A stretch of DNA of 62,975 nucleotides, the filler included, from Kipferlia bialata (Eukaryota), in the NCBI GenBank assembly GCA_003568945.1. It is 4 parts of 4 records of this genome, joined end to end, with 100 filler letters (N's around TTAATTAATTAA, not from the genome) between each part and the next. Parts side by side here need not be neighbours in the genome. Positions count along the whole stretch, not along the records: positions 1 to 19,276 come from BDIP01000433.1; 3 more parts are not named here. One strand, 5' to 3'. The position numbers and the translations under genes were made by a program. The notes under the pieces are model-generated. The model saw only the letters and a program-made list of their open reading frames with translations, was not told where the DNA came from and did no database searches. Shown here in pieces: positions 1 to 19,276 of this stretch. Positions within the stretch are counted from its first letter, which is position 1. Each line of letters starts with the position of its first letter.

Positions 1-763
1 CAACTATTGGACCTGTAATAAGGGTGTAGAGAGAGAGAGAGAGAGACCCACACTGGGCCGAGGGTGACAATGAGAGAGGAGAATGCTACAAGAGGACCTG
101 TAATGAATGTCTAGAGATCGGTAGAGAGGAAGAGCAACAGTGCTGACCAGGGTTAGGTTAGATAGAGAGATATAGAAAGTACCAAGGTTGACAATGTAAG
201 AGGAAAAGGCAACAGTAGAGTATAGGGTCAGCAGTGGAAGAATGAAACGGATGCCTAATTGAGATGGCATGTGTGCATGAGTATACATATTACCTGTCAC
301 AGGATGCACAACTTAATAATACATATTGCAATATATTCCAATATACAGTCAATTTGGTAAAACATATCTAATAGATAATCTATACAAATGTCACTGGATG
401 CACCACTTCCAGCACCCAATATAGAACAACAAAACAAATGAACAAAAGAAACGTGAATACCAGGTATGTATGAATTGCGATTATGTCTCACAAGTACATA
501 CATAAATATGCATATATATATATGTCTTTATGCTCTAACCTGTAACTGGATGCACCACCTCCAGCATTCTGTTCTTGAGAGAGGCTTCGGTCTCATCGGT
601 CTGATGGTTAGAGTGAAATCTATGTATATGGATATCCATTATATATGCTGGTTTATACACTGCATTATGCACCTTCTCCCTCTCCTTGGCGTGTGCCGCT
701 GTCAGCCACAGACCACACAGGGTGCATAGAACACCTGGAGATAGTGTACATAGACAGGTATGA

Positions 764-800
<37 letters not shown>

Positions 801-1117
801 AGGCCGCTGTCAGCCATAGACCACACAGGGTGGATAGAACACCTTATGTCAGCATATGTATATGTCCAAGTATATGTATACAGAGAGAAAGAGAGAGAGA
901 GTGCCGCTGTCAACACACAGGGTACAAAGGACGCCTGGAGGTAGTGTACATAGATAGATGTATTGAGAAAGAGAGAGTGAGATAGAGGTGGTAGTGACAA
1001 AAGGGTCTGACGTATTACATGTCACAAGTATTCATCAAGAGTAGACAGTAGAACGTGTTGGGAAGGATGTATATTCCATGACTCACCTACTAGTGCACAG
1101 ATCAGTAGAACTGCCAT
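1..1117 (-). CDS. Hypothetical membrane protein, 5' exons; the gene continues beyond position 1
   Basis: Phase-consistent GT-AG joins read MAVLLICALVG|VLCTLCGLWLTAAHAKEREK|TDETEASLKNRMLEVVHPVT|GPIV (exons about 1087-1117, 673-733, 540-600, 1-12). Hydrophobic segments are present. Synonymous differences in the intronic echoes support the frame. The start codon is uncertain and could lie further upstream. Confidence 0.55.
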
Positions 1118-1835
1118 GGTACAAGTCCAAGGAGAGAAAGCAGGGCGAGAGAGAGAGACGGCAATGCGAATCCAGGTACCGAGAGATGTCCTCAAACTAC
1201 TTGCTCTCAAAACGTTCCTCGCATGAGGCATCTGCCCAGTACAGGGGTGCAAATGGACGGATGTACCATAGTGTGAAGTCAATAGTTGGATCAATGGGAG
1301 AGCCCAAGCTCGACAGGGTAACGGGTGACTGTATCAATAGGCGAGAACTTGGCCATGAGAACTCTGTACTCTATGTCTCCGTCATTCATAGTGACCATTG
1401 ATACTTCACCTTGTTCTGTCAAACTACCGGAGATTGTCATAGTGAATAAGTCCATCTAGGTGCACTCTCTCCTTGTCTACGTAGAGTTCAACACCATACT
1501 AGAAACTAGATCACTTGTTTGTACATGAGAGACTGGTGAACTCTTCTATCACGCGTGTGAGGACCACTTCTTCTCTCCAAAAGGGTATATTGCTATATCA
1601 CCCTGAGGGTGATCTGGCTGTGGGGTGTCTTATCAAGAGTACATTCCATGCACATTCAAAACACATTCAATACACATTCAATACACTGGTGCTCTATTAA
1701 GACATGTACCATTGTGTTCTCACACTGGTCAGTCACACTTCTTCTCTTTTAACACCCGCTGCTCTGTCAACTCCGACAGAGGAGGTGAAGGAGGTGCTCT
1801 AGAAACGACTGTCTTACATCAAGTCGTAATCACCC

Positions 1836-17307: not shown

Positions 17308-19111
17308 AGGTCACCTGGCAGTGAGGGTACAAAGGGTCTAGAGAGGGAGAGAGAGAGAGAGAGAGAGTACCTCGAGATTAGCAAGGAGACCCAGGAGCAA
17401 TACACTTGCACTAGGAATGTGACCGCCAGCCTTCCTATCAATTCCTGAATGGTCAAGTCCTGGTTGGTCAAGGACTGACCCAAAGAAGCGCCTTGCTACT
17501 CCCGCTACGCCGTCTAAGGCAGATACTATCCTGGCACTTTCTCTCTCACTCTCCTTCCCTGCACTCTCTCCACTTATCTCTCTCTCTCTCTCCTCCTTTG
17601 AAGCAGAGGGAGAGAGGGAGAGGAAGGAGTGGTTGGGAAGAGCCATTGTGTCGGAGAGAGAGAGGGAGAGAGAGTCGAGGAGACTCGGAGCGTTGGACTT
17701 CTCAGCAGTTTGCCTCTCTCCCACTACCCCCTTACATACAAACACTGTCTGTCTCTCCAGTCCGACACTGGTGCAGAGGGAGAGAGAGAGCATGTGCCCC
17801 CTTTCAACCACCTTACAGGCATCCACTGAGACAGAGAGGTACCTCAGCCCACACCCAAGTGCCCTGACACATGCGTCTCTCTCTCCCCCTCTCCCTCTGC
17901 AAGAACTGAACTGCGAGGGTGAGTATATATGTAGCTCTCTGCCACCAGAGGGTAGTGCAACCACCACTGCCACAATGCCAGTCTCCTTGCCCAGTGCCGC
18001 ACATGCCACTCTCTCTCTCTCTCTCTCTCCCTCAATGAGAGTGGTGAGTAGCAGAGAAGTGTGTCCGAAAGGTGCCTCTCCAACACCACTTGAGGGTGTA
18101 GACGGAGAGACTATATGTGACAAGAGGGACTGCCGCACAAGCTGGCAAGAGCCTCTCTCAGTGGTAGAGAGGGACACTACGCCATGATGCGATGCACCCA
18201 CATGAGACGCTCCAGACGATTCAAACGCTCTAGAGGTAGGAAGTGCGTGGTGATAGCCCTGGTTCAGAGACCGGAATGCACATCTACCCGAGTCACAGAG
18301 AGAGGGAGAGAGAGAGATTACAGTGTGGCCCAGAGTTGGGGTGCCAACAGTTAGCAGAGTCTCCCTCTCCCTCTCTTTCTCCCCTGCCTTCCCCTTAACA
18401 GGGTGAGAGTGGGGGTAGGGGGAGAGTCTCTCCAGGATGAGTCTCTCTCTCTCCCTGCCTCCGCACAGAGGGGGTAGGCCTCTGAAGGTAGAGAGTCTAG
18501 AGACAGAGAGAGATACACCCTCTCTCTCTCTCCCTCTGGCTGTAGTAACACTCACTCTTAGGAGAGATAGTGCAATAGAGGCACCCAAACCCTCCTCGCC
18601 ACTCTCTCTGTTTTGGAGAAGGCAGGCAATGTCCAGAGTACTCTCTCCCTCTCCCTCTCCCTCTGCCTCACCATTTGTGCACCCCACTACCACTGTTGAG
18701 CATAGTGTACCACTACTGACTGGACCGTCCAGCTGGACAGGGGCAGACTGAGGGTCAGACCCAAATGTAATATAGATAGAGGTAAGTATATATATATATA
18801 TATATAATACTACTACACTATATATTGACCAGCTGGACAGGTGCAGACTGACAATGAGAAACATATACACTCTCACACACATACATAATGTATTACTCAC
18901 CTCCCACTTCTTGAGCACTCTGGCGGACTGGTGAATGGACCCACAGATACCACCCACACTGTCAGAAAGATCAAAGGACACGATGTGCATAGAACCCCTC
19001 ATCATCGCGTAGTTTTGGTCCTTCATGTGCTCTCCAGGCACATATCTCAGTCCCAGTAGGAGTGGGAGTGTGGGGTGGAAGAATAGGGAGTCAGGGTGGA
19101 TACCCAGTGCC
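1836..19111 (-). CDS. RAV1: Rav1/DMXL (rabconnectin-3A, RAVE V-ATPase assembly subunit)-like protein; many exons, 5' end truncated by the contig end
   Basis: Spliced exons at about 15.4-16.5 kb give CLPLMAMGKERQLGALYKANDQGKLGSFLTD..VAASKNAYVLLGKGEWERAAAWFMLAG, matching the Rav1p_C signature (FYLAMKKK..LWGLF..AALKNAFSLLGKQRFE.AAAFFLLAG). C-terminal WD-like exons (LLVGSSKGDIAVY, TSICFNTAGSVLCIGG) end GGVLIGSATGVIYALM* with TGA at 1838-1836. That the whole span is one gene is inferred, not proven. Confidence 0.75.
2824..3060 (-). repeat. Tandem array of about four 60-65 bp units: (CT)n-ACACCCTTATT-acceptor plus the first ~30 nt of an exon (DVPGSASRPI)
   Basis: ATGGGACGGGAGGCACTGCCAGGGACATCCTGCAATAAGGGTGTAG at about 2825, 2888 and 2951, degenerate copy at about 3015. 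Confidence 0.9.
5802..5830 (-). other. tRNA-like 3' fragment (Gly/Asp-like) with B-box, inside intron 5779-5839
   Basis: Minus strand reads CGGGAGGCCCGGGTTCAATTCC, matching the typical tRNA-Gly(GCC) variable-loop/T-arm; no 5' half. Confidence 0.6.
5969..6009 (+). other. tRNA-like 3' fragment (Leu-like acceptor) ending in CCA, inside an intron
   Basis: CCGGG-TACGATT-CCGGT-TCCAACC-A-CCA: T-arm register, 7-nt acceptor strand, discriminator, CCA; the T-stem has mismatches. Confidence 0.5.
6329..6400 (-). repeat. Coding 21-bp tandem repeat (SMSNLHG x3-4) in a Rav1 exon
   Basis: ORF 6250..6630 reads AMSNLHGSMTNLHGSMSNLHGSMHGS. Confidence 0.85.
7352..7379 (+). other. tRNA-like 3' fragment (Leu-like) with a perfect B-box, inside intron 7334-7397
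   Basis: GCGGG-TTCGATT-CCCAC-TGGCACC-A. Confidence 0.65.
7944..7991 (+). other. tRNA-like 3' half (Lys/Ile-like) with B-box, inside intron 7939-8038
   Basis: GTTAGAC...ATGGG-TTCAAGC-CCCAC-CGGGAGC-G. Confidence 0.65.
8234..8275 (-). other. tRNA-Glu(TTC)-like 3' half inside intron 8213-8280
   Basis: Minus strand TTTCAC-TCTGG-TGTT-CGGGAG-TTCAAAT-CCCGT-CACCGAT-A: anticodon loop through acceptor strand in roughly tRNA-Glu spacing. Confidence 0.6.
8753..8782 (+). other. tRNA-like 3' fragment with a perfect B-box, inside intron 8743-8801
   Basis: GGGCGTGGG-TTCGAAT-CCCGG-CAGTGTA-A. Confidence 0.65.
9497..9860 (-). repeat. Four ~97-bp units, each an acceptor plus the first ~45 nt of an exon (VNLGVSVNDETALV); only the 9497-9540 copy continues as the exon
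   Basis: GCAGTCTCATCATTGAC...GGTTGACCT at about 9497, 9595, 9693 and 9790, with ATCGCGTAG-containing spacers. Confidence 0.9.
11489..13055 (-). repeat. Array of phase-1 symmetric mini-exons encoding GGFGMRNVPQP(Q/K)P..DPMAAFG, plus partial copies
   Basis: Copies with both AG and GT at about 11490-11537, 11685-11738, 11892-11960, 12149-12210 and 12741-12809; a related exon at 13005-13055; truncated copies at about 12007, 12305, 12450 and 12655. Confidence 0.85.
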
Positions 19112-19180
19112 CTAGTATTAGAGAGAGAGAGAGGGAGAGAGAGAGAGGGAGTCAGGGTGGATGCCAAGGGTCCTAGTATG

Positions 19181-19222
<42 letters not shown>

Positions 19223-19276
19223 GGTGGATGCCAAGGGCCCTAGTATGAGATAGATAGAGAGAGAGAGAGAGAGAGA

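Follow-up and report, generated by a model that had tools for sequence, protein, structure and literature searches.

Introns of Kipferlia bialata carry copies of neighboring exon ends that differ from the exons mainly at synonymous sites

Most long introns of the genes modeled in a 62,975-nt window of the Kipferlia bialata genome contain short copies of the end of a neighboring exon, which we call echoes and which are unused in mRNA. These echoes are confirmed as a real feature of the DNA, and they differ from the exon ends mostly by silent changes; this synonymous excess is firm in contig 1 (BDIP01000433.1, positions 1 to 19276) and modest in four replicate genes. The evidence supports the conclusion that both copies diverged while they were protein coding. 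K. bialata is a free-living fornicate with 124,912 introns (PMC5874029); the words duplicat, heterozyg, and ploid are absent from the main text of that paper. The window, to which all results refer, comprises four contigs joined by N-linker-N spacers (19277-19376, 31213-31312, and 50568-50667), and its exon 27875-28516 is 100% identical to a K. bialata protein named Tudor-SN. Seven gene models were built by hand. Contig 1, the subject of the initial annotation, holds gene A and the start of gene B. The exons of gene A were drawn with the coordinates of RNA contigs in view; its model of 2194 codons is stop-free, has only GT-AG introns, and matches Pfam Rav1p_C in exon 8 (E = 8e-7). Genes C, D, E, F, and T were modeled from reading frame and splice signals, without RNA (Table 1).

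A codon-blind scan of each contig 1 exon against its adjacent introns gave 68 matches with scores of at least 15, with a false expectation of 2.1 derived from non-adjacent exon-intron pairs. Without overlaps, 56 matches remained, of which 48 come to within 3 nt of the exon end; the GT or AG is kept in 43 of those 48. An end-anchored scan of the seven genes (score of at least 10; 1.6 false expected, from a quarter sample of non-adjacent pairs) found 85 echoes of 12 to 71 nt, with a median of 33 nt. Gene A has 56 echoes, in 27 of its 49 introns plus the partial first intron. The initial annotation had claimed that most long introns carry copies and that these are anchored at exon ends with their splice signals, and both statements hold. 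Echoes occur in 37 of 41 introns of at least 200 nt (21 of 24 at 200 to 299 nt and 16 of 17 at 300 nt or more), in 9 of 25 introns of 110 to 199 nt, and in none of 33 shorter ones. The splice dinucleotide is kept in 40 of 51 acceptor echoes and 30 of 34 donor echoes (70 of 85 together; 15 have lost GT or AG), and a branch-point motif accompanies 28 of 34 acceptor echoes, compared with 75 of 84 real acceptors and 112 of 646 other intronic AGs. Only two internal indels were found in 2531 aligned bases. Echo density is 4 to 5 per kb of intron in four genes, and echo units make up 39% of the intron bases of genes A to F. Echoes adjoining N runs (4135-4183 and 7616-7657) are less certain. Comparison of the window with itself returned 82 near direct repeats, none of them between 19377 and 40740.

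The observed unit consists of an exon end of about 33 nt, its splice signal, and about 66 nt of intron, all skipped by the mRNA. Units repeat with a period of 61 to 279 nt (median, 101), and the median filler of 66 nt is near the size of an echo-free intron. Wherever an intron has both kinds, donor echoes precede acceptor echoes (11 of 11), around an inner intron of 38 to 228 nt. Echoes are not built as mini-exons: a donor lies near the inner edge of 11 of 50 acceptor echoes (background, 0.43), an AG accompanies 17 of 33 donor echoes (background, 0.45), a matching partner site exists in the exon for only 3 of 83, and the echoes at 4735-4766 and 62119-62170 contain stop codons. Microsatellites at the inner junction show a weak excess (30 of 79, versus a background of 0.26).

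The nine hand alignments of the initial annotation, including its counterexample, were all reproduced (Table 1), and the synonymous bias was then measured on echoes chosen without regard to codons. The contig 1 set of 43 echoes is the 56 matches minus 5 on exons 14 to 19, 5 distant from any exon end, and 3 scoring below 12 after trimming. With shared changes counted once, it has 51 synonymous and 17 missense changes (ratio of nonsynonymous to synonymous divergence [dN/dS], 0.10 to 0.13), and 52 of the 68 differences fall at third codon positions. The synonymous share expected under neutrality is 0.41 to 0.47 analytically and 0.42 through our pipeline, close to the roughly 40% assumed at the outset, and the excess has a p of 1e-6 to 1e-8. 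Loose trimming, which lets alignments enter (CT)n filler and so raises dN/dS, gives 0.18 to 0.23 for 46 echoes (p ≤ 5e-4); both trims are given here. In the anchored set, dN/dS is 0.18 (tight) and 0.26 (loose) for 55 contig 1 echoes and 0.22 and 0.32 for all 80. Neutral decay passed through the same detection and trimming gives 0.50. Against this null, the tight-trim values are 0.17 for contig 1 (0 of 300 simulations), 0.29 for genes C to F (6 of 300), and 0.21 for all 79 echoes (0 of 300); the loose-trim values are 0.25 (0 of 300), 0.33 (19 of 300), and 0.29 (0 of 300). The claimed bias thus stands for contig 1 (0.17 to 0.26) and is weaker in genes C to F. Replaced residues (n = 67) are conservative (BLOSUM, 0.09 versus −0.69; p = 3e-4), and silent and missense changes do not differ in G/C-to-A/T direction (p = 0.86).

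Intron flanks served as a yardstick for which copy was constrained. We called a unit alignable when its 30-nt intron flank scored above the 95th percentile of random introns. The assertion that a different intron follows each copy applies to 46 of 75 units, whose flanks are at background, and fails for the other 29. In these 29, flank mismatch is 0.167 (0.159 without microsatellite positions), and the proportions of synonymous (pS) and nonsynonymous (pN) differences are 0.228 and 0.027. They contain 15 missense differences, compared with 47 expected if the echo had decayed neutrally at half the flank rate (P = 2e-8), a result that holds at windows of 20, 30, and 40, without microsatellite positions, and in contig 1 alone. 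Such an excess of flank and synonymous over missense divergence is what two diverged alleles would show. Where no flank could be aligned (46 units), pN is 0.057. Identity falls at the splice site, from about 0.9 on the exon side to 0.60/0.46 at intron offsets 3 to 14 (null, 0.36/0.31). Among 17 echoes at least 95% identical to their exon, 13 have flanks below 0.6 at these offsets and 4 resemble plain duplicates; roughly one in four near-identical echoes probably arose by simple duplication within one chromatid. Echo divergence and flank similarity showed no correlation. Simulated cis duplication, collapse, conversion, and role-swapping gave a dN/dS of 0.53 to 0.92 in all 21 settings, whereas models in which an end captured from a diverged allele then decayed gave 0.05 to 0.52; a capture run close to the data (T, 0.1; age, 0.03; 10% of missense changes accepted) produced a pS of 0.18 and a dN/dS of 0.22. 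The neutral null and the flank test together support the view, already put forward in the initial annotation, that both versions diverged under coding constraint.

Two runs of one sample, one of DNA and one putatively of RNA (it is not recorded as RNA, and its contigs skip introns), were compared with positions 1 to 15700. Echoes above 15700, including two of the nine hand alignments, lie beyond this stretch. The eight longest DNA read contigs, listed ahead of 13,120 further pieces, align over 498 to 1448 bases with no differences or gaps at a depth of 455 to 499. At least 14 of the 49 echoes in this stretch share a single read contig with their exon end, although three of the 14 have a one-sided margin of 23 bases. 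This comparison is a check on the assembly and not an independent isolate, as the window may derive from the sample of the DNA run, whose contigs also drop rare variants. Over the 15.7 kb, it has one substitution row, three one-base indels, and no half-depth bins. Four small fixed mismatches of the window to the DNA contigs, at 7191, 9893, 10478, and 10917, are probably assembly errors. In all four stretches where RNA contigs could be used, their gaps (351, 382, 143, and 390) equal exact sums of real exons, and no echo letters were seen in these contigs, which represent the main isoform and drop rare ones. In these stretches, only the exon-proximal splice site is used in the main isoform. Since acceptor echoes keep branch points and the outer sites are used, site choice must favor the exon-proximal site.

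In our judgment, echoes probably derive from other alleles or homeologs, whose exon ends were displaced and left behind when divergent homologs underwent repair or crossover out of register. We infer the allelic or homologous source from one sample, in which alleles and the homeologs of an old hybrid look the same; a protein search with gene A exon 35 for a second copy returned none and also missed the gene's own product, hence it is uninformative. At present or in the past, the species would have had alleles with a synonymous divergence of about 0.2 and poorly alignable introns. A break near a junction would lead to invasion of the homolog within the exon and to copying across the splice site into its intron. 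Joining of the copied end without trimming of the resident copy would then create a tandem unit of about 100 nt, with one copy from each allele. Selection would keep the layouts that use the exon-proximal site, hence donor echoes before acceptor echoes and no cryptic exon, and the echo would afterwards decay neutrally. Some fungi and nematodes have a synonymous diversity near 0.2, and Dmc1 tolerates mismatches. The repair toolkit fits such a mechanism: Ku-type end joining is missing in metamonads, and the fornicate set includes two Dmc1 proteins and no Rad51A (PMC8516963).

Other explanations account for parts of these data. Tandem stacking of haplotypes or strains during assembly, which the initial annotation had named as a possible source of error, is extremely improbable. 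The assembly is a draft with N runs beside two echoes, the window may come from the very sample of the DNA run, and no long reads were seen, but the eight listed read contigs match without a difference at uniform depth and hold echoes together with their exon ends, and there are neither half-depth bins nor allele rows. It is very unlikely that echoes have a present function, either in alternative or trans-splicing or as the reservoir of swappable exon ends proposed at first, which would return to the exon by deletion between repeats. The GT/GC or AG kept in 70 of 85 echoes, the retained branch points, the near absence of internal indels, and the existence of trans-spliced introns in Giardia (PMC6679479) would suit a function. 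Against it stand the RNA contigs, which use real ends only (rare isoforms being dropped), the shortage of inner-edge donors and exon partner sites, the stop codons and lost splice sites of some echoes, and simulated swapping, which did not lower dN/dS; the reservoir is unsupported. We consider quite unlikely an ordinary tandem duplication of the splice junction within one chromatid, with neutral decay afterwards, whether or not synonymous change was faster in the real exon. End-anchoring, nesting, and a period of about 100 nt would be expected from any tolerated duplication, 29 of 75 flanks align, and both a threefold-faster exon and the near-neutral replicate genes agree with it. Its equal-rate form is rejected (0 of 300), all 21 cis settings give at least 0.53, above the observed dN/dS, missense changes are too few relative to the unit's own flank (15 versus 47), and near-identical echoes mostly have unlike flanks. 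We also regard as unlikely an error-prone re-synthesis in cis, in which repair of a break copies the junction with many errors, the new copy becomes the working end, missense events are purged, and the old end remains as the echo. This process would likewise make flank and synonymous divergence exceed missense divergence, and it requires no second allele, none being visible in the DNA run; changes common to all echoes of an exon end are synonymous in 11 of 13 cases, and alternative end joining has been called highly mutagenic (PMC8516963). It demands an error of about 20% per site, and six silent changes with no missense change in 52 nt (7671-7725) would almost never survive it. Codon pairs two to three changes apart (AGA/CGT, TTA/CTC, and AGT/TCC) point instead to a long coding history, and nearer echoes hold private silent changes absent from the exon. 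At 17 exon ends with at least two echoes, 11 of the 17 private changes of the nearer echo, at which the farther echo equals the exon, are synonymous.

Several results weigh against an origin of echoes in divergent homologs. This polarity count is significant against 0.28 (p = 0.002) and not against 0.43 (p = 0.06); polarized by divergence, it is 7 of 12 (p = 0.03 and 0.22, respectively). The pooled ratio also agrees with an exon lineage that changes at three times the rate of the echo (52 and 282 of 300), and only the flank test and the small polarity count argue against such a lineage. The replicate genes C to F lie weakly below neutrality, at 0.29 to 0.39 overall (anchored set of 24 echoes, 0.31 tight and 0.39 loose; binomial p = 0.09 and 0.34), and in their seven alignable units the flank test is weaker (P = 0.01 to 0.7). 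No significant age gradient with distance was found (10 versus 6; p = 0.45), and the simulations operate at the level of substitutions, not populations. With a single substitution row and three one-base indels over 1 to 15700, the DNA run showed no second haplotype at a likeness of 90% and no divergent allele. Metagenome scans with gene A exon 2 and Tudor-SN found no relative and give no evidence either way, and sex or diploidy in K. bialata is not established in the literature covered.

If the divergent-homolog origin is right, untranslated non-coding DNA bears a protein-coding signature, and allelic diversity and past recombination can be read from one genome where sex is hard to observe; intron lengthening would also gain a concrete process. 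We suggest tentatively, giving it somewhat less than an even chance, that Kipferlia introns grow mainly by capturing the junctions of divergent alleles in a self-feeding process: with Ku-type end joining absent and recombination by Dmc1 only, repair would begin in exons and come to a halt where introns do not match. Each stalled repair would then stack another exon end, making introns still less alignable. A single homozygous genome would be an archive of past alleles, revealing hyperdiversity as well as hidden sex, and exon-proximal choice by a reduced spliceosome would be evident from strong decoy splice sites in their thousands. The metamonad spliceosome is reduced to 87 of 174 proteins (PMC6679479), and echoes with intact branch points are natural decoy sites for testing its choice.

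Table 1. Modeled genes and representative echoes in the window (syn., changed codons that are synonymous; HA, hand-aligned in the initial annotation)
Feature	Position	Strand	Details
Gene A, Rav1/DMXL-like	1837-19111	−	50 exons in window, 49 introns; 5' part beyond contig
Gene B, first three exons	540-1117	−	1117-1087, 734-673, 600-540; open frame; continues off contig; no RNA piece listed
Gene C, replicate	58540-62800	−	10 echoes in 8/10 introns; two with stop codons
Gene D, replicate, rubrerythrin	39852-42170	−	4 echoes in 3/7 introns
Gene E, replicate	56446-58100	+	7 echoes in 4/5 introns; one GC-AG intron
Gene F, replicate, FG-GAP repeat protein	50670-56110	−	3 echoes in 2/11 introns
Gene T, contrast, Tudor-SN	24892-28963	+	Short introns; 1 echo in 15 introns
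Donor echo of exon 540-600	294-312	−	Versus 540-558; keeps GT; 3/3 syn. (HA); on one read contig with its exon
Donor echo of exon 540-600	388-414	−	GT lost; 2/2 syn.
Two acceptor echoes of exon 673-734	803-842, 914-934	−	1/2 and 4/4 syn.
Three acceptor echoes of exon 2796-2853	2888-3042	−	63-nt array; alignable flanks
Donor echo of exon 3414-3470	3313-3347	−	2/2 syn.
Two donor echoes of exon 3758-3840	3518-3672	−	3629-3672, 4/6 syn. (HA); 3518-3539 decayed
Nested pair	4644-4766	−	Donor echo 4735-4766 with stop codon; 54-nt inner intron; acceptor echo 4644-4680, 2/2 syn. (HA)
Donor echo of exon 5719-5778	5611-5643	−	3/3 syn. (HA); spanned by read contig 5231-6678
Echoes on both sides of exon 6972-7031	6833-7188	−	Donor 6833-6867; acceptor 7080-7108, 7160-7188
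Acceptor echo of exon 7398-7548	7671-7725	−	6/6 syn., one via two changes (AGA/CGT)
Longest echo, 71 nt, donor end of exon 9306-9540	9196-9266	−	6/8 syn.; flank unrelated
Three acceptor echoes of exon 9306-9540	9595-9833	−	98-nt array; 3/3 (9595-9638, HA), 2/3, 0/5 syn.; read contig 9474-10438 spans
Gene A intron 22	10018-10452	−	Donor echo 10416-10452, 0/2 syn. (HA, counterexample); 84-nt inner intron; four acceptor echoes of exon 9904-9956
Gene A exons 14-19	11490-13052	−	Six whole tandem exon copies, all spliced in
Gene A intron 11	14279-14612	−	Donor echo 14593-14612; acceptor echoes 14374-14411 and 14279-14312 (2/2 syn., HA), both on read contig 13963-14601
Nested pair	16218-16326	−	Donor echo 16283-16326, 4/4 syn. 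(3/3 to 16323, HA); 38-nt inner intron; acceptor echo 16218-16244
Acceptor echo	16558-16597	−	Identical over 40 nt; intron flank unrelated
Deeply diverged acceptor echo of exon 16773-16910	16968-16986	−	Ser AGT/TCC; sub-threshold, by eye, outside statistics
Two acceptor echoes of exon 18901-19111	19148-19239	−	19213-19239, 5/5 syn. (HA)

Exons 14 to 19 of gene A were left out of the echo statistics. They are 48 to 69 nt each, all of phase 1, and encode a proline/glutamine-rich repeat; their lengths sum to 351, the RNA contig gap. They represent what the kind of duplication seen in echoes yields when a complete exon is copied in frame, and partial echoes sit between them. In gene E, the GC-AG intron (56686-57041) has a donor echo at 56729-56744 that likewise keeps GC, and in gene D weak, deeply diverged acceptor echoes were noted by eye at about 40014, upstream of exon 39938. 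The Tudor-SN gene (GC content at third codon positions, 0.82) lies on the contig at 19377-31212, which is GC rich (about 57%), has short introns, and lacks near direct repeats; its single echo in this setting indicates that echo load varies by gene or region.

A (CT)n-A[CG]ACCC motif occurs in the sense orientation in introns (11 of 11) and never in exons (e.g., 2858-3011, 7030-7227, and 11239-11360). Ten copies lie within 8 to 18 nt of a real or echo acceptor, and the motif is possibly an extended acceptor element; read depth of up to 156,000 at it indicates that it is genome-wide. Microsatellites of the modeled genes are strand biased, with 93 (CT)n versus 3 (GA)n in introns and 31 (GA)n versus 15 (CT)n in exons, where (GA)n encodes ERERE runs. 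Short tandem TTAGATTAAGGG-like units lie inside introns at 1910-2105 and 15240-15300. By eye, a long intron-poor reading stretch on the plus strand spans 36400-39490, with pentapeptide-like repeats near 38300-39080, and dispersed, partly inverted repeats at 44100-45100 and 47800-48800, with related blocks such as 45577-45760 and 48636-48820, are apparently duplicated gene pieces.

No description of the exon-end echo pattern was found in the literature covered, most subscription papers lying outside it; within that literature, one paper treats fornicate intron signals and not this pattern (PMC6679479). In the variable-number tandem repeat of human F7 intron 7, tandem copies across the exon-intron boundary, like echoes, leave silent downstream donors, and the most upstream donor is used (PMC1557585). 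As in F7, the echo unit spans the boundary and keeps its splice signal (48 of 56 matches reach the exon end and 43 keep GT or AG; 70 of 85 in the anchored scan), and the exon-proximal site alone is used, as RNA contig spacing indicates for the main isoform. The F7 repeat is a 37-bp minisatellite at one locus, with identical pseudo-sites on the donor side only (PMC1557585), whereas echoes occur on both sides, in most long introns of several genes, in units of 61 to 279 nt with coding-type divergence. Their units are not near-identical in the intron part: 46 of 75 flanks are at background, and the others differ by 0.17. Intron gain by tandem genomic duplication is likewise a local duplication that alters gene structure and leaves the protein unchanged, but it creates a new intron from a duplicated exonic AGGT (PMC3443670), whereas echoes enlarge an existing intron and straddle an old splice site. 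Lying inside existing introns, echoes do not supply both splice sites from a duplicated exonic segment. Insertion of an introner or transposon with target-site duplication would leave a single element family flanked by short, identical direct repeats; the echo repeats are 12 to 71 nt long and diverged, and a short (CT)n-ACACCC motif recurs near acceptors.

Tandem exon duplication, including that of mutually exclusive exons, places a homologous exon with low dN/dS next to the original. Exons 14 to 19 of gene A are such whole-copy duplicates, and only they enter the mRNA as whole exon copies; echoes have one splice site only and are absent from mRNA. Silent donor cassettes, such as trypanosome VSG, Borrelia vls, and chicken immunoglobulin pseudogenes, are also unexpressed coding-like pieces near an expressed gene, but echoes are synonymous-biased, decaying, and found in housekeeping genes, with no sign of use or diversification. 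When divergent homologs undergo unequal crossover or one-ended gene conversion, the result is a tandem pair that differs as alleles do. Known inter-homolog exchange is sporadic or occurs in gene arrays, whereas echoes recur on a scale of about 100 nt at 4 to 5 per kb of intron. Divergence like that of alleles is weaker in the 7 replicate units and is seen across the 29 alignable units, in which flank and synonymous differences (0.167 and 0.228) far exceed missense differences (0.027).

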